From a virus (Duplodnaviria > Heunggongvirae > Uroviricota > Caudoviricetes): DNA of 61,740 bases. The notes under the pieces are model-generated. The model saw nothing but the letters and a program-made list of their open reading frames with translations, had not been told where the DNA came from and searched no databases. Made by a program: the position numbers and the translations under genes. Position 1 is the stretch's first letter. Each line of letters begins with the position of its first letter. Location: IMG/VR virus record IMGVR_UViG_3300045919_000425, positions 97,199 to 158,938 of that record, one strand, 5' to 3'. Positions 63-18,586 of the stretch are shown here, one piece after another.

Positions 63-114
63 AATAGAAAATACCACAGCTTGACTTTCGGTTAAGTTTG
101 TGGTATTTTCTATT
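63..114. repeat. Long inverted repeat (about 23-bp stem, one bulge, two G-T pairs) overlapping a promoter
   Basis: aatagaaaataccacagcttgac (63-85) pairs with gttaagtttgtggtattttctatt (91-114); loop tttcg. Confidence 0.85.
81..109 (+). promoter_or_regulatory. sigma70-like promoter
   Basis: TTGACT-N17-TATTTT with TG extended -10; GTTAA in spacer; RBS AAGGAGG downstream. Confidence 0.7.
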
Positions 115-126
115 CAAGGAGGAATT

Positions 127-1539
127 ATGAATAAAGAAGAGTTAAGGAAATTTGTATTAGAAAATCCAGAACTTGTTGATATGAAGAGAACCTCAAAAGA
201 AGGCATTTATATCTTGAAATACAAGAAAACAGTTTTCTTTAATAGTTTGTGGAATGAGTTTCTTGAAGAATGCCGAGGGACAATTATTGACAGTGAGTTT
301 AATGTGATCTCAAGGCCATTTACCAAGATCTATAACTTTGGAGTAGAAGAAAAAAGTCCAAAGTTACCAGAGGAAACTCCAATAATAGCGTACAGAAAAG
401 TTAATGGATTCATGGTTGCCGTAACTCTTTACAATAATGAACCATTAATCTCTACAACTGGAACGATTGATTCTCAGCATGTAATTTACGCAAAAGAGAT
501 GATGTTGAAGTCCTGCGCATGGAGTAAGTGGGTTCATTTCTTCAGATCTAACCCTAACCTTACGTTTATGTTTGAATGTGTTCATAAAGAAGATCCCCAC
601 ATCATCGCTGAAGATGAAGGCATTTATCTTTTAGGTTGGAGGGAGAATAGGTGGGATTCTAAGGTTGATGGATGGTTAACATCAGAGGATGATGTTATTC
701 AGAACACGGCGAATCATCTTGGATGTAAGTTCGCAGAATCGCATAAAACATCAGTTGGAGAGTTAATTATCCTTTCTAAGAAAATTAAGCACGAAGGATT
801 TGTTTTCTACACACAAGACAATATCAGCGCAAAGATTAAGACACCTTATTATCTTGTGAAGAAATTTATAGCAAGAGCACCAAGGGACTCTAAGCTTATG
901 AACCCTAATGTTAAGAAGAACGTGGACGAGGAATATTACCCATTAATTGACGCTATTCAAGCGAACATTAGAAAGTTCATGCTGTTAAGTGAACAGGCAA
1001 GACTTGAGTGGATAACCAAGTTTCTTACTTCTGGTAGTGTAGAATTTACGGTCAGGAATACTAATTCCCCAATATTTTACATGTTGATTGGGGTGCCAGG
1101 ATCAGGAAAATCAACATGGATTAAAGATAACATCACAGAAGATTTTACGATCTTATCCACAGATGATTACATAGAAAGAAAAGCTAAGGAAGAAGGTAAG
1201 TCCTATAACGAAGCTTTTAATTCGAATATTTCGGAAGCGTTCAGGGTTTTGAGAAGGGAGATGGATAAGGCCATCTCCGAGAAACGTAATATCGTATGGG
1301 ATCAAACAAATACGGACAGTAAAAGTAGGCGAGCTAAATTAAACCTAATTCCTTCTTTCTATAGGAAAGTTGCAGTTGTGATTTCATTACCAGAAAGAAA
1401 AGAATTAGAAAGAAGGCTTTTATTAAGACCGGGGAAGACTATCTCAAACAATACACTGGAAGATATGATTAATATGTTTATAGCTACTATTCCTAACCTT
1501 CACGATGAGTTCGAGGAAATACTAACCTCAGCTACTTGA
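127..1539 (+). CDS. Rnl1-type RNA ligase fused to a C-terminal P-loop polynucleotide kinase
   Basis: ECRGTIID and SRPFTKIYNFG segments, motif I RKVNGFM, FMFECVH and EGFV of T4 Rnl1-like ligases; C-terminal LIGVPGSGKST, ILSTDDY, VWDQTN of Pnk kinases. Start moved to ATG 127 after AGGAGG. Confidence 0.85.
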   Translation: MNKEELRKFVLENPELVDMKRTSKEGIYILKYKKTVFFNSLWNEFLEECRGTIIDSEFNVISRPFTKIYNFGVEEKSPKLPEETPIIAYRKVNGFMVAVTLYNNEPLISTTGTIDSQHVIYAKEMMLKSCAWSKWVHFFRSNPNLTFMFECVHKEDPHIIAEDEGIYLLGWRENRWDSKVDGWLTSEDDVIQNTANHLGCKFAESHKTSVGELIILSKKIKHEGFVFYTQDNISAKIKTPYYLVKKFIARAPRDSKLMNPNVKKNVDEEYYPLIDAIQANIRKFMLLSEQARLEWITKFLTSGSVEFTVRNTNSPIFYMLIGVPGSGKSTWIKDNITEDFTILSTDDYIERKAKEEGKSYNEAFNSNISEAFRVLRREMDKAISEKRNIVWDQTNTDSKSRRAKLNLIPSFYRKVAVVISLPERKELERRLLLRPGKTISNNTLEDMINMFIATIPNLHDEFEEILTSAT

Positions 1540-8516: not shown

Positions 8517-10706
8517 ATGAGCGGTGATTTCATGAAATTCAAGAAGCTCCCAGAGTCGGTGAAGTCTAAAATTTTGGACTTAGAAGTTAGTAGGTTCCTT
8601 CGAGGAACGGCAGAGTTCCATCAGGTTGATGGGTATTCCATAAGCATTGTAAAGTTCCGCCTCTCAAAGTCTCAGTTTCCTGACTCGCTCTATCTTTATA
8701 ACGCATGCGTAAGCGAAGGATTTCCGAACGAAGAACTCCAGAACTCGCTCCCATGGGAATTAGGCGAAGATATATCCAAAACACATCCTAACTTATCGTA
8801 TCGCAGTCCTAACGCTCTTTGGAAATTCATTTCTGGCATCCCCGTAACCGATAATATTGGAGAAGGTTACTGTGGAGAACTTGCTCAGGTAGCTTTAACT
8901 AAATCTAGCGAATTAACTGAAGATGAGGAGAATGCACGTATGCAAGATGAAAATATGAACGAATTAAAAGAGTTGAGCCTTCGTATTCAGAATTCTAAGA
9001 TGGGAAGAGAGCAAAAAGAAAAAGTAAAGAAAGAATACCGGAAATTAACCATGCTTGCCCCGCAAACGTCAGAGTCCGCCTTGCAACGTGTATATCTCGA
9101 TACAGTGCTTTCATTGCCATGGAATGAATACGCAGTAGAAACGAATGATCTTATAAGGTCTGAAGAAGTATTAAATAGTAGCCATTATGGATTAAAGGCA
9201 GTAAAAGAAAGAGTTTTAGAGTATTTAGCAGTTAACCAATTCACAGGAACAACCAGCAATGGGACAATGCTTTGTCTTTATGGTCCTCCTGGAGTAGGAA
9301 AAACGTCAATAGCTCAATCCATCGCAGATGCAACAGGCAGGGAACTTGTAACAGTAGCGCTAGGCGGAGTATCAGACGAAGCAGATATCCGTGGACATAG
9401 GAAGACATACATAGGCTCAATGCCTGGAAGAATTATGGCAGCGATAAAAAAAGCAAACAAGATGAATCCGATTATCTTACTAGATGAGATAGATAAGATG
9501 GGCGCAACAAATAAAGGAGACCCAGCCGCAGCATTATTAGAGGTATTAGACCCATCACAAAACAAGAAATTTGTGGATCATTACCTGGAAATGGAATTTG
9601 ACTTGTCTAAGGTTATGTTTATAGCAACAGCAAATAGCTTAAATACAATCTCCTCCCCATTAAGAGATCGCATGGAGATTGTTACATTAACAGGATATAC
9701 AGACCAGGAAAAAGTAGAAATAGGACGCAAACACTTAGCTGTGAGTGTCCTTAAGAAGTCAGGGCTATTAAACAGGGGGATTAAGTTCTCTGTAGAGTCA
9801 ATTGAGGAAATAATCAAACACTATACAAAAGAAGCAGGAGTCCGTAACTTAGAAAAAGAAATGTCTAAAGTTTGTCGTAAGATAGTAAAGTCAGCTTTAG
9901 ACGGGAAGAAAGAGTTGGTGTCTGGAATTAGCCGTATGAGCTTTAAAGGTGCAGAAAAAGATAATGAACGGAATATTACACCTGCAATAGTTAATAAGTT
10001 GCTCGGTGTTCGTAAATTCGAAGATGAGCTTAAGAATAAGAAGAACGAGGTTGGAGTAGCACAAGGTCTGGCTTACACTTCAGTCGGCGGATGTCTTCTG
10101 TTTGTAGAAGTAGCTATCACTAAAGGGAAGGGCGGATTCAAGACTACAGGGCAGTTGGGTGATGTTATGAAAGAATCCTCACAGATCGCATTAACTTACA
10201 TTCAAACTAGAAGTGAAATGTTAGGAATATCTGATGAATTCTTCGAGAAACATAACATTCACATTCACTTTCCTGACGGAAATACGCCAAAAGATGGACC
10301 TTCTGCTGGCATTGCTCTTACTCTAGCTATTACCTCTGCAATTACAGGTATTCCTTATAACAGGAATGTTGCAGGGACAGGTGAAGTCGATTTAAGAGGG
10401 AATGCTTTACCTATTGGTGGAGTAAAGGAGAAAATGATCGGAGCTTATGTGGCAGGCGTATCTCAGGTATTTATCCCTAGAACTAATATTAAGGATTTAT
10501 ACGAAGTATCCGATGAGATTAAGGGTAAGATAGAAATACTTCCTATTTCTTGTGCAGAAGAAGCGCTTTTAATAGCTTTAGATTTCAATACCCCGAAAGC
10601 ACTAGAAGTAAAGCAAAAAATAAGTGACTTTCTATTCTTAAATGGAGTCTCTGCCGTCACTGTTAAGCATTCATTAGAGTCTCATCCGAGTTTATCCAGT
10701 AAGTAA
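8517..10706 (+). CDS. lon: Lon (LonA-type) ATP-dependent protease with atypical N-terminus
   Basis: LSLPWN, SHYGLKAVKERVLEYLAV, Walker A GPPGVGKTS, IRGHRKTYIGSMPGRI, Walker B LLDEIDK, catalytic PKDGPSAG (Ser) and IGGVKEK (Lys). Confidence 0.95.
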   Translation: MSGDFMKFKKLPESVKSKILDLEVSRFLRGTAEFHQVDGYSISIVKFRLSKSQFPDSLYLYNACVSEGFPNEELQNSLPWELGEDISKTHPNLSYRSPNALWKFISGIPVTDNIGEGYCGELAQVALTKSSELTEDEENARMQDENMNELKELSLRIQNSKMGREQKEKVKKEYRKLTMLAPQTSESALQRVYLDTVLSLPWNEYAVETNDLIRSEEVLNSSHYGLKAVKERVLEYLAVNQFTGTTSNGTMLCLYGPPGVGKTSIAQSIADATGRELVTVALGGVSDEADIRGHRKTYIGSMPGRIMAAIKKANKMNPIILLDEIDKMGATNKGDPAAALLEVLDPSQNKKFVDHYLEMEFDLSKVMFIATANSLNTISSPLRDRMEIVTLTGYTDQEKVEIGRKHLAVSVLKKSGLLNRGIKFSVESIEEIIKHYTKEAGVRNLEKEMSKVCRKIVKSALDGKKELVSGISRMSFKGAEKDNERNITPAIVNKLLGVRKFEDELKNKKNEVGVAQGLAYTSVGGCLLFVEVAITKGKGGFKTTGQLGDVMKESSQIALTYIQTRSEMLGISDEFFEKHNIHIHFPDGNTPKDGPSAGIALTLAITSAITGIPYNRNVAGTGEVDLRGNALPIGGVKEKMIGAYVAGVSQVFIPRTNIKDLYEVSDEIKGKIEILPISCAEEALLIALDFNTPKALEVKQKISDFLFLNGVSAVTVKHSLESHPSLSSK

Positions 10707-11783: not shown

Positions 11784-12349
11784 GTTATTTGCCATTAAGC
11801 CCTATTAAAGTAAGCCCAGGTATCGCTATAGGTGGGATTGCTATTTCAATGATAGTTGGCGGAGTATTAACAAAAACCCTATTGCCAACAAAGACCATAG
11901 AGATTACTAAGACGATAGAAATAGAGAAGAAGACAGAACTAAAGTCGGATAAAACAATAGCGCAGTCTTCAGATAATTTAGTGCAGGATAATGTAATTAC
12001 TTACACTACAATAAAAAGAAAAGACGGTACCGTAATTACTACCGAAAAGATAGATAAATCAATTAAGCATAATAAAGAAAATACCACTTCCCATGATAAA
12101 CAGGAAGTGGTGAAAGAAGAGCATGAGTTTTCTAGGGAGGATAAGAAGATTACTGAATTAAACAAGTCAAGTAATTGGGGATTAGGCTTATCATACAAGG
12201 CTTCTAATTTTAGGGATATTTCTTTAGAGTATCCAAATGTAAAGAACTTAGGAGGGTCTTTAGAGTACAAGGCATTAGACACTTTAGGGTTTCAGTTACA
12301 GGTCTTTACAGACCTTTCCGCAACTCTAACAGTGAAGTACTGGTTTTAG
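11780..12349 (+). CDS. Membrane-anchored protein with C-terminal amphipathic beta-strands (spanin or OM-protein candidate)
   Basis: N-terminal hydrophobic helix GIAIGGIAISMIVGGVL; T/K/E-rich linker; four C-terminal strands ending LTVKYWF. Confidence 0.6.
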   Translation: MSYLPLSPIKVSPGIAIGGIAISMIVGGVLTKTLLPTKTIEITKTIEIEKKTELKSDKTIAQSSDNLVQDNVITYTTIKRKDGTVITTEKIDKSIKHNKENTTSHDKQEVVKEEHEFSREDKKITELNKSSNWGLGLSYKASNFRDISLEYPNVKNLGGSLEYKALDTLGFQLQVFTDLSATLTVKYWF

Positions 12350-12806
12350 TCTTTTTCATTGATTCCTTCTTTGGAGCTTTCTCTTTCACAATCTTCTTAG
12401 AACATATATCTTCCAAATTAAAGCTTAGAAATTTCTCCAGATTAGCAGCAAAAGCACCTCCAACTCCCTTGAGTGAAGAAAGAGGCGGCCTAAGCTTATC
12501 CCCTTCAATGGTAAATTCAGATGGATGACTTTTAAGAATATCTGCCGGAAGAATCATTTCTGACAATTCTTTTGAATACTCTCTGAGCTTATCCCTATCA
12601 GCAGATTCGGCAGAAAGCTCAGCAAGCCAAAAATCCATCGGGTAATGCTTCTTTAGGAATGCTGAATTATATGAAACAATTGAATAAGAACAGTTGTGAG
12701 CTACAGTACCGTTTTCAAGTACAAAGTTGTGGTTAGTCGGCATAACTAGATCAAACACTTGCTGTTCACCTAACGACTTAACACTCTTCACCTTTAATTT
12801 CTTCAT
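12306..12806 (-). CDS. dnaE: Split DnaE C-part: Int-C (38 aa) plus DnaE C-extein (128 aa)
   Basis: MKKLKVKSVKSLGEQQVFDLVMPTNHNFVLENGTVAHN (blocks F/G, terminal HN) followed by +1 Cys and SYSIVSYNSAFLKKHYPMDF (DnaE AYLKxHYP motif), HhH LSSLKGVGG; own AGGAGG RBS. Confidence 0.92.
   Translation of the reverse strand: MKKLKVKSVKSLGEQQVFDLVMPTNHNFVLENGTVAHNCSYSIVSYNSAFLKKHYPMDFWLAELSAESADRDKLREYSKELSEMILPADILKSHPSEFTIEGDKLRPPLSSLKGVGGAFAANLEKFLSFNLEDICSKKIVKEKAPKKESMKKTKTSTSLLELRKGL
12693..12806 (-). mobile_element. Split intein C-half (Int-C)
   Basis: Basic N-terminus, VFDL and NFVLENG block F, AHN|C splice junction at 12693/12692. Confidence 0.92.
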
Positions 12807-13803
12807 AAATCCTCCTTAGTTCAGATTCCCATGTTTCTTGTTGATCATCCCAGAATACTAGTAAATCCTTACCGTTCTCCTCGGCTATCTTCTTCTTGAA
12901 TTCATCATTCTTAATATTCTTGGTTACTACATCCCTTAAAATTTCTTTAGTGTAATCATGCCACACTCGCCCGTGCATTTCGAATAAAGTATTAATCTTA
13001 GGGGAATAAATATCAAAACTACGATACCTACTAAAACACTTAATCCTATACTCCATAACAGCAGCAGGATCATACTCCTTCACCATCCCATATAGCTTCT
13101 GTTGAGGCTTAGTGACTCTCCACTTAGATAGCATTTGCGATCCCATCCTAGAAGCGCTCTCAATACACTTAGGCGAAGCTTTCTGTCCTTTACTTATAAA
13201 CAAGCCTCGTCTTTTAATGTTCATACTAACCACCTCCTCTATTGGTAATTCAAGCAAGTAAGCAATCACGGCATTTTGTTGATTATGACCTCTTTTTTCC
13301 GGGTCTTGAATCTCAACCTCACAGAACTGATACATGAAATCAGGAAATAACTTACTTAGCTTGCTGTGAATATCTTTAAAAGGAAGTGTCTCATCTTTCT
13401 TAAAATTACTAAACAGTTCTTTACTTTTTCTCCTTATCTTATCTACAGGATAGTTTTTTATACGAGTCTTACATGCAGGGTTATTAAGACCTACCCTTTT
13501 CTTACTCATAGTGTTAGCACTAGAACTCCTCATAACTCCGGTAGCACGAGGAGGGATAAAAACCCAGTCTTCGAGTGAATTAACTTTCTCAAGAACTCTA
13601 ATCCACCAGTCAGTGTAAGCAATACTATCAGTCCCGTCAGACTTCAACCAAGCAATATGGTTAACTCTTACACGGTCAATCATTGTAAGTACTTCACTCT
13701 TCCAATCTTCTGAAGAAGTGCACTTAGGGCCAGTAATATGAACCCTTAAGGTATTACCTTTAACGTTCTTTCCGCACCGGCATGTAACATAACTCATTTT
13801 CAT
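12778..13803 (-). CDS. Free-standing Vsr/DUF559-like PD-(D/E)XK homing endonuclease between the intein halves
   Basis: C-terminal EYRIK..SFDIY..TLFEMHGRVWH..NDEFKKKIAEENGKDLLVFWD; NUMOD3-like TMSKKRVGLNNP; N-terminal CRC..H..C cluster. Confidence 0.8.
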   Translation of the reverse strand: MKMSYVTCRCGKNVKGNTLRVHITGPKCTSSEDWKSEVLTMIDRVRVNHIAWLKSDGTDSIAYTDWWIRVLEKVNSLEDWVFIPPRATGVMRSSSANTMSKKRVGLNNPACKTRIKNYPVDKIRRKSKELFSNFKKDETLPFKDIHSKLSKLFPDFMYQFCEVEIQDPEKRGHNQQNAVIAYLLELPIEEVVSMNIKRRGLFISKGQKASPKCIESASRMGSQMLSKWRVTKPQQKLYGMVKEYDPAAVMEYRIKCFSRYRSFDIYSPKINTLFEMHGRVWHDYTKEILRDVVTKNIKNDEFKKKIAEENGKDLLVFWDDQQETWESELRRIYEEIKGEEC

Positions 13804-16579
13804 CTAGCATAGACCATTCTCCCCCATCCTTGATTGCGTGATTCAACTCCACCCATTGCCCATTATACCACACTCTATGGTCACTCGTAAGCTGAATTTT
13901 ACTTCCGTCCTCAAACTCAACCTCAAAAACTTCCTTTATACCTTGATTCAGTAGCTCCAATGGCTTCTCATATTTAACAGCGCCATCTTGATCGATAAAC
14001 TTAACTTCAGGAAGATTATCATTACTCATATCGCCTATCTTTACATTACCGATAGAAGTTTGAATTTCTTGCTCGGAAAATACACAACTATGACTCCTAT
14101 TAAATCCGTATTTTCCGCTAGCTTCAATCATCTCACCTAACTCCTTCGCTTGTTCCAAGCTCCACCCTCGCTTATCCATAACGGTACTTTTTAATCCTCC
14201 TAAGTGCTTAATCAATGCCTGAGCGTCTTTTTTTCCAATTGCACGCCTAACTCCCTCAGCGTCTTCGTATGTGTACCCACCAAGATCACGAAACACTCTT
14301 AAGGTCTGTTCCTGAAATAAAGGAACACCAAAGGTAGATTCAAATATTGGAATCATGTCAGGATGGATGTATCTCGGAGACAACTTACCTGACGAGCATT
14401 GAATGTAATATTCAACCGCATTTCCTTTAAAATCCTCCCTGTCAATTATCCAGTCCAGGCATGATGGCCTATAAAGAGCAATAAGGTTAGAAATTTGGTC
14501 AATATTTTTAGGTTTAGTCTGAATACAAAGATTCGTAATTCCCTTTGTCTTAGTTTGAAATGTCGCTGAGGTATCTCCTGTGTGGTAAATATCCTCATAA
14601 ACTTTCGGATCTTGTCTGAATAGTTCCCATTTCATCACCTCTCCGGTTCTTTTCTTTATGTTATTCATCGCTCTTTGTATTGTATTAAGAGCCGTGACTC
14701 CTAAAATATCAACCTTTAATCCACCCACATATTCTACGTCTTTAGGACTAAAAGCCGCAGCTAACGTCGCTTTCTTGCCAGCGCCAACTCGACAAAGAGG
14801 CATAAAGTGATGAATAGGCTCATCCGCAACAATCACAGCACAAGCATGCACGGACTTTTGACGAGAAATTCCACACATAGCTAGCACGGACTCCCAGATC
14901 TCTGGATTGTTCTTCGCATAAAGCTGTAAGTCTGGCGCATCTTCAAAATATCCCTTTACGTGCTCCCCTTCCTGATTTGTATATCCAAACATCCAGTCAT
15001 TCTCAGATATCCCTTGAGGTATCTGAGGCATCTTGATAGTCATCCTGTTCGTTTCTTCCCGCACGCTTCCTAAAATGAACCGCTCTGAATCCTTAATGGC
15101 AGATTTTGGCTTCATCAAAATATCTATAGAGAGTGGAACCATATGGGTTCCGTATTTTTCTTTCATTAGGTCGAGAATTTTATGCTTATCAGAAAAGTCC
15201 ATATCAAAGTCTGGAGGAGTATTTGCATTAATACGACCCCTCGTAAGAAACCGCTCAAATGGTAAGTCGTATTCTAATGAATTTGTAACGGAAATCCCAA
15301 GAGCGTTAGCAAGTAAGCAACCACCGCCAGAACCACGTAGCTGCATTAAGATATCGTTCTTTTTTGCCATTTCCGCAATATCTGACACCATAAGAAGGTA
15401 ATTTAAGCCATCTAGTTTCTGATTACTGTTTAGTACGGAAACTTCGTAGTTTAATCGATCCTTGTTCACTTGTTCTGATAAGTCTAAGATTTTAGATTCC
15501 TCCGCTCTTTTAACAATCTCTCTCTTGGGTGTAGTAGATACTTTCGGTATTTTCCATGCCCGTTCATTGATTGTTAAGAATTCGTATCCTGAGAACATAT
15601 CAGCATACGCATGAGTGTTATCAATTAGTTCCTCGAAATCACGGTCAGATAGAATGTCGGAATGGGATTTCCTAGCTTCTTCGACAATTTCACCTGCGCA
15701 CATAACATGTTGAAATTGACTCATAACCCAGCCATCATTTTTAGCATCCTGTGCCACCTTATGAGCCTTTTCCGCATAATGAGCATCTTGACTGAATAGC
15801 GGCTTAATGCCAAGAGATTTAGTTAAAGGCAGCCTTAGTCTGTTAATTTCCCTTTGAATATCAGGGTGGTTAAAATAAGGCTTACATTCGTTAACTTCTA
15901 GTCTGGATGGCAACCCAAGCTCGGCATCTTCTTTTTTATACTGATGAGTCAAATCCTCAACAATTATTTCATCGAATAAGTTCTCTTTACCTATCACATC
16001 AATCATCATGTTAATTCGTTTAGCGGCCTCAGCAAGACCATATCCATCGAGAATAGGTTTGTTGCACCACGATCCTACACAACCCGTACCAACAGTAATT
16101 CCATGACCAGAGAGTTCGATAAACTCCTCCCAATTCATAACGGGCTTACCTTTATAGTACCGCTCATCCGAATAAAGCACGGCAGTTAATTTACAGTAAG
16201 ACTCATACGCAGCCCTTGTCTTAAACCCAATAGTTATATGGGAATAAACCTTACTTTCGTTGCCGTATCTGTCCACTTTTCCTTTCATAATATCATTAGG
16301 CCAGAAAATATAAGCTTCAACCCCATGAATGACTTTCATTCCGAATTCTTTGGCATATCTGTGAACCGAGGCAGCGGAATTCAATGAGCCGTGTTCCGTA
16401 ACTGATACATGAGTCATTCCACATGTTTTCATTCTTTTTACCATAGATTTAACAGTAGACGCACCATCTAATGAACCGCAATCTGTATGAGCATGCACTG
16501 CGCATGCCAGCCTTTTCCCCTTAAACTGATTCTCTCCTTTGAAGGGTGTAAAATCCCACAGACTCTTGACTCCACTCAT
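13760..16579 (-). CDS. dnaE: Split DnaE N-part: PHP and polymerase core (831 aa) plus Int-N (108 aa)
   Basis: PHP HAH..LDG, TEHG, GVEAY, QDAHY; LRGSGGG, YDLPFERFL, catalytic PPDFDMDF, SVHACAV, KVDILG, VPLFQEQ, AEGVRRAIGKK, KYGFNRSHS then intein CVFSEQ. Confidence 0.95.
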   Translation of the reverse strand: MSGVKSLWDFTPFKGENQFKGKRLACAVHAHTDCGSLDGASTVKSMVKRMKTCGMTHVSVTEHGSLNSAASVHRYAKEFGMKVIHGVEAYIFWPNDIMKGKVDRYGNESKVYSHITIGFKTRAAYESYCKLTAVLYSDERYYKGKPVMNWEEFIELSGHGITVGTGCVGSWCNKPILDGYGLAEAAKRINMMIDVIGKENLFDEIIVEDLTHQYKKEDAELGLPSRLEVNECKPYFNHPDIQREINRLRLPLTKSLGIKPLFSQDAHYAEKAHKVAQDAKNDGWVMSQFQHVMCAGEIVEEARKSHSDILSDRDFEELIDNTHAYADMFSGYEFLTINERAWKIPKVSTTPKREIVKRAEESKILDLSEQVNKDRLNYEVSVLNSNQKLDGLNYLLMVSDIAEMAKKNDILMQLRGSGGGCLLANALGISVTNSLEYDLPFERFLTRGRINANTPPDFDMDFSDKHKILDLMKEKYGTHMVPLSIDILMKPKSAIKDSERFILGSVREETNRMTIKMPQIPQGISENDWMFGYTNQEGEHVKGYFEDAPDLQLYAKNNPEIWESVLAMCGISRQKSVHACAVIVADEPIHHFMPLCRVGAGKKATLAAAFSPKDVEYVGGLKVDILGVTALNTIQRAMNNIKKRTGEVMKWELFRQDPKVYEDIYHTGDTSATFQTKTKGITNLCIQTKPKNIDQISNLIALYRPSCLDWIIDREDFKGNAVEYYIQCSSGKLSPRYIHPDMIPIFESTFGVPLFQEQTLRVFRDLGGYTYEDAEGVRRAIGKKDAQALIKHLGGLKSTVMDKRGWSLEQAKELGEMIEASGKYGFNRSHSCVFSEQEIQTSIGNVKIGDMSNDNLPEVKFIDQDGAVKYEKPLELLNQGIKEVFEVEFEDGSKIQLTSDHRVWYNGQWVELNHAIKDGGEWSMLDENELCYMPVRKER
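13763..14086 (-). mobile_element. Split intein N-half (Int-N)
   Basis: Cys1 in CVFSEQEIQT (block A), EVFEVEFEDGSKIQLTSDHRVW (block B TxxH); acidic overall. Confidence 0.92.
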
Positions 16580-16606
16580 AATTCCTCCTTATGTTGGTTT
16601 AAAGAC

Positions 16607-16919: not shown

Positions 16920-17005
16920 AACTTATCCTTATATTGCAGTTGTCTAATCCTAAGATGGCCGACTATAGTATAAGTAACAATAAATCATAACAGAAAGAAT
17001 GAATT

Positions 17006-18586
17006 ATGTCAACAACCTCTCTAGCCCCGAATCCATATGCAACCATATCATCATATACAGATAAAGACACGTTACTTTTAGACCTGGATTTATACAGGGT
17101 ATTCAAGACTAATCAAACATTAACCTTGGATCTATTTCCGCAGATTGCAGTTAATAGGTGGTCATATATAGTAAATGCTTGGCCTACTTCACTATCTAAA
17201 GTGTTCTTGGATTCAATTAATGGTGATGGGTACTTATTAAACTCCTACACTCAGTTACAGAATGCTATTTATGCAAGCTCTGTCGATCCAAATTACAATC
17301 CATTAACGGATCGTACTTTTTATCAAGAGGTACAAGACTTTTTGGCTTTGCTAACACTGGACTCGTTAAGGCTTACTCCACTAGAGACCGATATCGTGAA
17401 TAAAGAAAAACAGAGAATATCCAAGTTCACAATCGCTACATTCCAGGCTATGATTTCTTTCCTGAGAATAGAAAAGGCAAATGCTTTTGACCAGATTGGA
17501 TTAGGGAATAGTAAATATAACTCATGGATTGGGAGAAAAGGATTAGCTGTTGTTCGTGAGTACTTTTTATCTGACTTAGACATCATTCAGGAAATGATAA
17601 ATCTTGAAAATAAAATACTTGGGATAATCGTAACCCTAAAAAGAACAGTGATTACCGATCCAAATCTCCTTGCTTTTTCGAATAGGAATATTAATCCTGG
17701 GTCTGGTGTTCAGGTTTTAGATATCTACAGGTCATACACAATGATGCCATTTGAACAATCATTAGAGGTGATGGCAGTAAAGTACTTGGGTGATATCCAA
17801 AGAAAATATGAAATAATCACAGTAAACAACCTTAAAGCTCCTTTTGTAGATCAGCAAGGGCTTAAAGTCCCTTTGCTCGGTAATGGGACAGCTAATTCTA
17901 TTGTAGTTCCAAATACATTTATAGATCGCTGTAGGGTAGGCGCAACAGTTCGTGTAGGATCTAGGATAACACCCGAAACTACACGTAAAATCCTTAAAGT
18001 AGTGGACAATAAAATTAACGAACTGATTCTGTTCTTGAGTGGCGATAATACGCTTGGGTCCTTGCTTCAGTCCCAGGGAGCGTACTTGAGGTGTTATGCC
18101 CCAGACACCTTACAGGATTTCTCGTTTGTGAGGATTCCGTCCACCGTAACTCCAAAGACTCCGCCGTTATCTCAGCCTTCTATTTCCGAGATCAGGAAGC
18201 TGGATGACGCATTAATAGCTTTTGGTGTGGATATAGCGTCAGACCCTATTACAAGAGACTGGCAGTCAGATCTTTCAGGTAACATAAAGTTAGCTTATGG
18301 TATGACGAACGTTGCACAGGCGATTAGGAATATCATGAGGGTTCCTACGGGATCTTTATCGAATCATCCTAATTACGGAATTAAGGATTCCACAGGAGAT
18401 CAATTCACCAGAGATGTTCCGACAAAAGTATCAGGCGATATCCAGGCATCCGTCTTAAGAGATCCACGAATTGTTTCCATGCGAATTAACGAGTTGACTG
18501 TTACGGAAGAGGGTGTTATTGTTGTGTCATCTGCGGTTAAAATAGCAGGGGCGGGGCAGTATTTACCATTATCTTTTAATCGATAA
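17006..18586 (+). CDS. Baseplate wedge protein with C-terminal gp25/GpW-like domain and a LysM-like segment
   Basis: C-terminal GNIKLAYGMTNVAQAI..TGSLSNHPNYG..VLRDPRI (gp25-like); LEVMAVKYLGD..YEIITVNNLKAPF (LysM-like). Confidence 0.7.
   Translation: MSTTSLAPNPYATISSYTDKDTLLLDLDLYRVFKTNQTLTLDLFPQIAVNRWSYIVNAWPTSLSKVFLDSINGDGYLLNSYTQLQNAIYASSVDPNYNPLTDRTFYQEVQDFLALLTLDSLRLTPLETDIVNKEKQRISKFTIATFQAMISFLRIEKANAFDQIGLGNSKYNSWIGRKGLAVVREYFLSDLDIIQEMINLENKILGIIVTLKRTVITDPNLLAFSNRNINPGSGVQVLDIYRSYTMMPFEQSLEVMAVKYLGDIQRKYEIITVNNLKAPFVDQQGLKVPLLGNGTANSIVVPNTFIDRCRVGATVRVGSRITPETTRKILKVVDNKINELILFLSGDNTLGSLLQSQGAYLRCYAPDTLQDFSFVRIPSTVTPKTPPLSQPSISEIRKLDDALIAFGVDIASDPITRDWQSDLSGNIKLAYGMTNVAQAIRNIMRVPTGSLSNHPNYGIKDSTGDQFTRDVPTKVSGDIQASVLRDPRIVSMRINELTVTEEGVIVVSSAVKIAGAGQYLPLSFNR

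Follow-up and report, generated by a model that had tools for sequence, protein, structure and literature searches.

The window analysed here is the last 61.7 kb (61,740 nt; positions 97,199 to 158,938) of the 158,938-bp virus record IMGVR_UViG_3300045919_000425 of IMG/VR, a tailed phage genome (Caudoviricetes) with a CheckV completeness of 98%. ORF (open reading frame) listing and translation revealed a minus-strand block of three overlapping ORFs, flanked by plus-strand genes, in which a gene for the DNA polymerase DnaE is divided into an upstream piece (N-gene) and a downstream piece (C-gene). Each piece is fused to one half of an intein, and a candidate endonuclease gene lies between them. 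The three ORFs occupy three different frames. The parts of the block are listed below, lengths being given in amino acids (aa); here and throughout, a slash within a peptide marks a junction between polymerase (extein) and intein, or the point at which an intein is inserted.

13760-16579, minus strand: N-gene, 939 aa, reading ...KYGFNRSHS/CVFSEQ...TSDH...KER and then the stop codon
12778-13803, minus strand: middle endonuclease ORF, 341 aa
12306-12806, minus strand: C-gene, 166 aa, starting MKKLKVKSVKS...TVAHN/CSYSIVSYNSAFLKKHYP
14087-16579, minus strand: dnaE N-extein, N-gene codons 1-831, with PHP, Pol III alpha and fingers regions, ending ...KYGFNRSHS
13763-14086, minus strand: N-intein half, 108 aa (C832...R939), with Cys1 and block B TSDH; its stop codon is at 13760-13762
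12693-12806, minus strand: C-intein half, 38 aa, MKKLKVKSVKS...TVAHN
12309-12692, minus strand: dnaE C-extein, 128 aa, with the +1 Cys as its first residue (CSYSIVSYNSAFLKKHYP...) and an HhH motif; its stop codon is at 12306-12308
16584-16590, minus strand: Shine-Dalgarno sequence AAGGAGG of the N-gene, by direct sequence reading
12811-12817, minus strand: Shine-Dalgarno sequence AAGGAGG of the C-gene, inside the endonuclease coding sequence, by direct reading

The middle ORF overlaps the N-gene by 44 nt (13760-13803) and the C-gene by 29 nt (12778-12806). An original prediction, made for this locus from the letters of the sequence, had placed a 341-aa endonuclease gene between the halves with precisely these overlaps. 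Its reading of an N-gene ending in KYGFNRSHS/CVFSEQ..TSDH, and of a separate C-gene that begins MKKLKV..AHN behind its own AGGAGG, was likewise confirmed by the ORFs, their translation and inspection of the sequence.

A DnaE polymerase in two pieces

When the two exteins are joined they give a protein of 959 aa (831 + 128), the size that had been predicted, and restore a DnaE motif that is continuous (YGFNxxHS[C/A]SYSIVSY) in two relatives without an intein, P0007 (965 aa) and P0008 (989 aa). The N-extein matches the Pfam families PHP (1e-20), DNA_pol3_alpha (6.8e-42) and DNA_pol3_finger (2.4e-29) as well as the PHROG 405 DNA polymerase (1.2e-145), and the C-extein matches Pfam HHH_6 (1.7e-4) together with NCBIfam DnaE models. 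The full bacterial-type Pol III alpha set of PHP, palm/thumb, fingers and HhH regions is thus present. Two regions of cellular DnaE, the OB-fold and the C-terminal tau-binding region, are missing, and the intein-less relatives (965-989 aa) lack them too.

This DnaE is the sole recognisable DNA polymerase of the genome: the 98%-complete record yielded one Pol III alpha match, and no PolA was found when it was looked for in the genome. The single weak PolB match, in another part of the genome, turned out to be an SbcC/Rad50-like ATPase. With a single recognisable polymerase, the phage's own replicase depends on the joining of the DnaE halves. Searched against GenBank phages, the locus gave no blastn match, and the best GenBank-phage protein match was the DnaE of Myxococcus phage Mx1, at 29%.

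The intein halves

The N-intein is matched by the NCBIfam model intein_Nterm at N-gene residues 832-903 and the C-intein by intein_Cterm (7.4e-5, above the cut-off of the model). The C-gene also matches PRK07373, the model of the cyanobacterial split DnaE-C gene (7e-22); models for both cyanobacterial split dnaE genes match, and the matches extend into the intein parts. Among solved structures, the chains nearest to the N-half are cyanobacterial DnaE split inteins (7qil, 1zd7 and 4kl6; E 1.5e-5 to 1e-4) and those nearest to the C-half are the Ssp and Npu DnaE inteins (E 3.5e-8 and weaker). The C-half begins at the same structural point as the cyanobacterial DnaE C-inteins.

All splicing residues of a class 1 HINT domain are intact, namely C832, T-S-D-H, H37-N38 and C39 (the +1 residue), and alignments of the relatives (for the N-half, the window plus 7 relatives) show no variation at Cys1, at D-H of block B, at the terminal Asn or at the +1 Cys. 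The net charge is -11 for the N-half and +5 for the first 13 residues of the C-half, which is the acidic-N/basic-C polarity known for DnaE split inteins. The two halves are predicted to dock into one HINT fold: the modelled complex scored 0.83, the best of 3 controls scored 0.01, and the mark used for such scores is reached by 58 of 80 solved complexes and by 2 of 110 mismatched pairs. Contact agreement between runs was at least 92% and the partner pLDDT (predicted local distance difference test) at least 72. Since similar complexes have been solved (Ssp and Npu DnaE), the docking score shows likeness to them and cannot count as independent proof that the halves bind. The intein is inserted at SHS/C, 7 residues downstream of the cyanobacterial Y/CFNKSHS.

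The gene between the halves

The 341-aa protein has no family match in Pfam or NCBIfam, and its PHROG matches are weak ones to 'homing endonuclease' entries. It belongs to a family for which 18 homologues were found, one of them labelled Vsr by JGI. D264, E275, H277, H282, D300 and W318-D319-D320 are invariant in the 18-member alignment, W281 and E251 are invariant or nearly so across the 18 homologues, and the window's copy has all of the family-invariant residues. An AlphaFold (AF2) model built on the family alignment reached a mean pLDDT of 89.4, and its comparison by VIA-align delimited a Vsr-like/EDxHD nuclease domain at residues ~224-338. This domain aligned with E. coli Vsr 1cw0_A (Z 10.0, root-mean-square deviation (rmsd) 3.6, 110 aligned residues), with the catalytic domain of I-Bth0305I 3r3p_B (Z 9.2, rmsd 3.4, 93/98 aligned) and with 1vsr (Z 8.8). 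Foldseek searches with the whole endonuclease model gave weak E-values (best relevant 0.12), with Vsr ranked 2nd and I-Bth0305I 4th, so that the fold assignment rests on VIA-align as a second look.

E275 (+11) and W281/H282 (+17/+18) follow D264 at exactly the distances that separate F62 and W68/H69 from D51 in Vsr; D300 was assigned to the Vsr D97 position, and E251 corresponds in the motif to the upstream Glu. These Vsr positions define the Vsr-like family of Dassa et al., which has an 'invariant glutamate at the Phe62 position' (PMC2677866; PMC3239194). Fold and motif make the 341-aa protein most likely a free-standing Vsr-like (EDxHD-type) homing endonuclease.

At its N-terminus the protein has a CxCG...H...C module and, behind it, a helical region containing two R/K-G-rich motifs; this part presumably binds DNA. 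The Pfam NUMOD models gave no match to the protein. The conserved motifs R-x-G-x-x-N-P and K-R-R-G-x-x-I-S-x-G-Q may resemble NUMOD3. The genome holds a single copy of the endonuclease gene. Between this copy and its closest homologue the nonsynonymous divergence (dN) is 0.275 and synonymous sites are saturated; the saturation made NG86 dN/dS incomputable, and together the two observations indicate purifying selection on the endonuclease.

The endonuclease start sits within the upstream coding sequence. A perfect extended -10 element (TGGTATAAT; window 13863-13871, minus strand), without a -35, was seen ~60 nt 5' of this start; it falls within the codons of the conserved intein peptide RVWYNG and may be a coding coincidence.

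Related alleles

A search of IMG/VR for related loci with the whole N-gene returned none, and relatives were obtained via a protein index, after which their contigs were fetched. The original prediction had proposed a search for related alleles that are intein-less or contiguous, and both kinds were found. The relatives, which carry L or P numbers, form the following series.

P0008/L003: intein-less allele, reading ...FNKSHSASYSIVSY
P0007/L005, 6001-8898: intein-less allele, reading ...FNSAHSCSYSIVSY, with Cys at the exact +1 position (FNSAHS-C-SYSIVSY)
P0015: contiguous mini-intein, 118 aa
L002, L004 and L013: split intein with adjacent halves and no endonuclease gene, spacers of 11-53 nt
Window, L006, L007 and L014-L021: fractured alleles with a homologous endonuclease gene

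Genomic context was available for 11 members of the endonuclease family, and all 11 sit at the same point of this dnaE intein. Independent assemblies of other samples (L002, L004, L006, L007 and L014-L021) have the same layout of stop codon, ribosome-binding site and start codon, which shows that it is not an assembly error of the window's record; the concern that stops and overlaps might be such errors, raised with the original prediction, was thereby removed. In L002 and L004 the downstream dnaE piece has its own ribosome-binding site.

A near-isogenic pair, L002 and L003, has 99.57% identity over 6 kb upstream of the insertion, and the first 200 nt downstream match at 100%. What separates the two is a 458-nt element, made up of N-half, stop, 23-nt spacer and C-half, and the two junction codons (L002 6005-6468 vs L003 8527-8532), the latter reading AGT/TGT (Ser, Cys) with the intein and TCG GCC (Ser, Ala) without it. 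The comparison marks a very recent gain or loss of the element, by recombination with a minimal conversion tract. This recently gained or lost element carries no endonuclease of its own.

The exteins of intein-less P0007 are nearest to those of L017, which has both intein and endonuclease, and the Cys of P0007 at the +1 position is consistent either with the footprint of a precise intein loss or with a pre-existing Cys. A Cys also stands at the FN/C site of P0017, where there is no intein, and is a possible footprint of precise loss at that site.

Between distant lineages the intein and the endonuclease are more conserved than the host gene (N-half 42-59%, C-half 76-82% and homing-endonuclease gene 43% identity; exteins 32-38%). 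In every endonuclease-bearing locus examined, the N-half ends in a tail (YMP[VL]R...) that overlaps the CxCG codons of the endonuclease gene. Related tails are kept in the endonuclease-less alleles and are absent from the contiguous mini-intein; this pattern agrees with a fractured ancestor having lost its endonuclease, as in step III of the Dassa model. In the 53-nt spacer of L004 (8803-8855), a 15-nt copy (AAATTAAAGGTGAAG) of the window's C-intein start codons lies just 5' of the present start and looks like a small duplication scar at the site that an endonuclease gene would occupy.

Further interruptions were seen in two relatives. In L007 (988-7086) dnaE has an extra break, which is occupied by an HNH_3 endonuclease gene and lies upstream of the Vsr-like gene; this leaves DnaE in three pieces, and an RNase_T exonuclease is fused to the first. 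In L016 (1-5772) the N part also carries a LAGLIDADG/Hint intein.

Insertion points within the DnaE motif

The homologous inteins that go with this endonuclease family occupy four positions within the ten-codon motif YGFNKSHSAS.

GF/C: L015 and L016
FN/C: L013, L014, L020 and P0015
SHS/C: window, L002, L004, L006, L017, L018 and L019, and, as SHA/C, L021
SHSY/C: L007

At every one of these positions the +1 residue has been replaced by Cys and the length of the motif is preserved, and the endonuclease gene sits at the same point inside the intein. In a tree confined to these phage inteins, the SHS/C inteins form a clade with the SHSY/C intein nested within it (moderate support, 83-92), and this nesting points to a slide by one residue. 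An offset of one residue between the NrdA and NrdJ sites had already been noted by Dassa et al. (PMC2677866).

We suggest, tentatively and with considerable doubt, that one mini-intein lineage with its dedicated endonuclease colonised at least four positions of the motif, and that the cyanobacterial DnaE intein is an endonuclease-less descendant of it. If this were true, compensated changes at the junctions could let inteins 'slide' along a host motif. The DnaE split intein of cyanobacteria would then be the unlinked, endonuclease-less descendant of a phage fractured gene, as in step IV of the Dassa model, and the cyanobacterial Y/C site would be a fifth position of the lineage.

Model and alternatives

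We consider it highly probable that the locus is a fractured dnaE, in which a mini-intein has been split by a homing-endonuclease gene, the two products trans-splice to the 959-aa DnaE, and the whole is a selfish and dispensable element. Under this model a class 1 mini-intein of the cyanobacterial DnaE split-intein lineage would have entered the fingers motif YGFN(K/R)SHS/A, the +1 residue becoming Cys, and a free-standing Vsr-like endonuclease gene would have broken it at the canonical endonuclease-insertion loop. The endonuclease gene would provide the stop-codon region of the upstream piece and the ribosome-binding site and ATG of the downstream piece, and the three genes are probably co-transcribed. 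Docking of the acidic N-intein (-11) with the lysine-rich start of the C-intein would follow, and the halves would form a HINT domain and trans-splice, with the 959-aa DnaE as the expected product. The endonuclease most likely cuts the endonuclease-less or intein-less dnaE of co-infecting relatives, the repair of which would copy the element in. The evidence for such homing is indirect and consists of the location of 11 of 11 family members in this intein and of the presence/absence polymorphism among relatives. The element is best explained as a selfish passenger rather than as a regulatory device, and may be called dispensable because relatives without the intein exist.

Several observations weigh against this reading. 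Searched against PDB sequences, neither the single endonuclease sequence nor the family profile gave a meaningful match, and with isolated nuclease domains the Pfam matches stayed below threshold (Vsr at E 0.025; PvuRts1I-like at E 0.003-0.09 for some members), so that membership in the Vsr-like group rests on fold and motif spacing. The Shine-Dalgarno sequence of the endonuclease gene is weak and distant (GGGGGAG, ~15 nt before the ATG), and folding of 13770-13870 (minus strand) gave no hairpin at the endonuclease start (z 0.81 vs shuffles); together these make expression of the endonuclease uncertain. The native junction of the cyanobacterial DnaE inteins is A-E-Y/C-F-N, and because the extein context of the window, S/C-S-Y, differs from that of these best-studied relatives, efficient splicing is not to be assumed. 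A host polymerase could also replicate the phage, and both trans-splicing and DNA cleavage are activities that we infer from the genes.

The same junction residues, unlike those preferred by characterised DnaE inteins, would suit a different reading, in which the halves no longer splice and serve merely as a non-covalent clamp for two polymerase fragments, as proposed for intein relics and Aeh1 NrdA. However, the catalytic positions are all intact (C1, block B TSDH, HN and +1 Cys), the aligned relatives show no variation in the D-H, Asn and +1 Cys columns, and a mere clamp has no need of Cys1, Asn and +1 Cys; we hold a clamp to be very improbable. An artefact or pseudogene, with stops and overlaps that are errors in a contiguous intein-containing dnaE, seems scarcely credible. 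The record is a single metagenomic assembly, but the block consists of three ORFs in three frames, each dnaE piece has a strong Shine-Dalgarno sequence, and the same architecture and break point occur in at least 10 independent assemblies.

The original prediction had linked dependence of the replicase on the joining of the halves to a possible control point for replication. The dependence stood, given the sole recognisable polymerase of a 98%-complete record; the control point did not, as nothing was found to support it and the intein-less alleles of L003 (set against L002) and L005 weaken it. The idea that trans-splicing is an adaptive and regulated checkpoint, timing or limiting the replication of the phage, would have in its favour that the split gene encodes the only polymerase of the genome. 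It is general knowledge that inteins which depend on cysteine can in principle be sensitive to redox state, and this adds to the case for a checkpoint. Yet the gene is uninterrupted in the near-isogenic L003 and the related L005, the endonuclease alone has been lost in other relatives, the distribution of the element is that of a homing parasite, and hairpin folding and promoter and terminator scans found no regulatory feature at the locus, so that we judge a checkpoint quite improbable. A minor but real probability attaches to the reading that the endonuclease is frozen or inactive, homing having ceased, with vertical inheritance of the element and its presence or absence shaped by ordinary recombination and deletion. 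The weak ribosome-binding site and the start inside the upstream gene agree with this, endonuclease-less split alleles are common (L002, L004 and L013), and the element that is polymorphic between L002 and L003 has no endonuclease. Against it, the window's copy keeps all family-invariant residues, the dN of 0.275 with saturated synonymous sites relative to the nearest homologue speaks for purifying selection, and dnaE genes that are just 32-38% identical have the intein together with the same family of endonuclease.

Relation to known systems

The arrangement is already published: Dassa, London, Stoddard, Schueler-Furman and Pietrokovski described fractured genes in 2009, including three DnaE loci and, at DnaE-2, a Vsr-like endonuclease (PMC2677866). 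In their loci the 3' end of the endonuclease gene overlaps the downstream piece by 6-69 bp, one locus has adjacent halves without an endonuclease, and an RNA hairpin lies just 5' of the endonuclease ORF in some cases without being a defining feature (PMC2677866). The assignment of the window's locus to this arrangement in the original prediction holds, the split halves, the nuclease gene between them and the 3' overlap all being present. DnaE as host protein, phage origin, the Vsr-like endonuclease and the 3' overlap (29 nt here) are shared with the fractured genes of Dassa et al. Unlike their loci, the present one lies in an essentially complete 159-kb phage genome, its endonuclease gene has an overlap of 44 nt with the upstream gene as well, and it has no upstream hairpin.

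With the split intein of cyanobacterial DnaE (Ssp, Npu; 1ZD7, 1ZDE, 2KEQ and 4KL5) the locus shares the host protein, the conserved motif, the acidic-N/basic-C polarity and the break point (~102-123 + 36 aa there, 108 + 38 aa here), and the similarity is moderate (E ~1e-5 to 1e-8). The insertion differs by 7 residues (SHS/C here, downstream of Y/CFNKSHS), and the cyanobacterial dnaE halves are unlinked and lack an endonuclease, whereas here they are adjacent with an endonuclease gene between them.

I-Bth0305I, the prototype of the EDxHD homing endonucleases, is encoded in a group I intron of recA (PMC3239194; PDB 3R3P). The window's endonuclease resembles it and E. coli Vsr (1CW0, 1VSR) in the nuclease fold and in Asp/Glu-x-His/Trp-His/Asp residues at Vsr-like spacing, and resembles I-Bth0305I also in a bipartite architecture with a putative N-terminal DNA-binding region. 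It differs in that its gene is free-standing within a split intein instead of lying in the recA group I intron, in its N-terminal CxCG...H...C module, and in having no Pfam NUMOD match and no significant sequence-level match. As in Aeromonas phage Aeh1 nrdA/mobE (PMC3045599) and phage 25 gp43, a selfish endonuclease gene splits an essential DNA-metabolism gene in two; the pieces of Aeh1 nrdA and phage 25 gp43 reassemble non-covalently, whereas covalent ligation by the intein halves is predicted here.

By itself the locus is a further example of a published arrangement and changes little. Its value lies in a natural series within one phage group, comprising intein-free, contiguous mini-intein, split with endonuclease and split without endonuclease alleles, which are the intermediates postulated by the 2009 gene-breaking model, here for DnaE in genomes that are long or complete. 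As by-products, this complete allelic series, the near-isogenic presence/absence pair and the range of insertion points are of more interest. The group offers a practical system for studying endonuclease targets, the in-trans mobilisation of an endonuclease-less split intein and the drift of insertion points. The intein pair is also a candidate orthogonal split intein, its S/C-S-Y junction being unlike the A-E-Y/C-F-N of Npu and Ssp.

Other features of the window and its relatives

The surrounding genes are typical of a large tailed phage and include an RNA ligase/kinase, a UvsX-like recombinase, a Lon-like protease, and baseplate, portal and terminase genes. Consensus scans picked out two possible boundaries of the transcription unit.

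16984-17012, minus strand: promoter-like site TTGACA-17-TATGAT (11/12, with TG), 5' of both a 93-aa ORF and the dnaE block, and possibly the promoter of the operon
12083-12111, minus strand: terminator-like hairpin with a 12-bp stem and a T run, ~200 nt 3' of the C-gene, where the transcription unit may end

The numbers of promoter and terminator sites found by these scans in the region were not above those in shuffles, so that the operon boundaries are merely suggested.

The Lon-like AAA+ protease gene of the window (8517-10706, plus strand; 729 aa, Lon_C 5e-73) is intein-free. Its orthologues in L002 (9574-12328) and L005 (11754-14898) carry a Hom_end_hint intein (1107-1114 aa) and those in L003 and L004 (770-792 aa) have none, which gives this phage group a second polymorphism for the presence or absence of an intein. 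The ORF at 100-1539 (plus strand, 479 aa), RNA-ligase-like at its N-terminus (PHROG 562, 1e-43) and polynucleotide-kinase/ATPase-like at its C-terminus, is possibly an RNA repair (anti-anticodon-nuclease) module.

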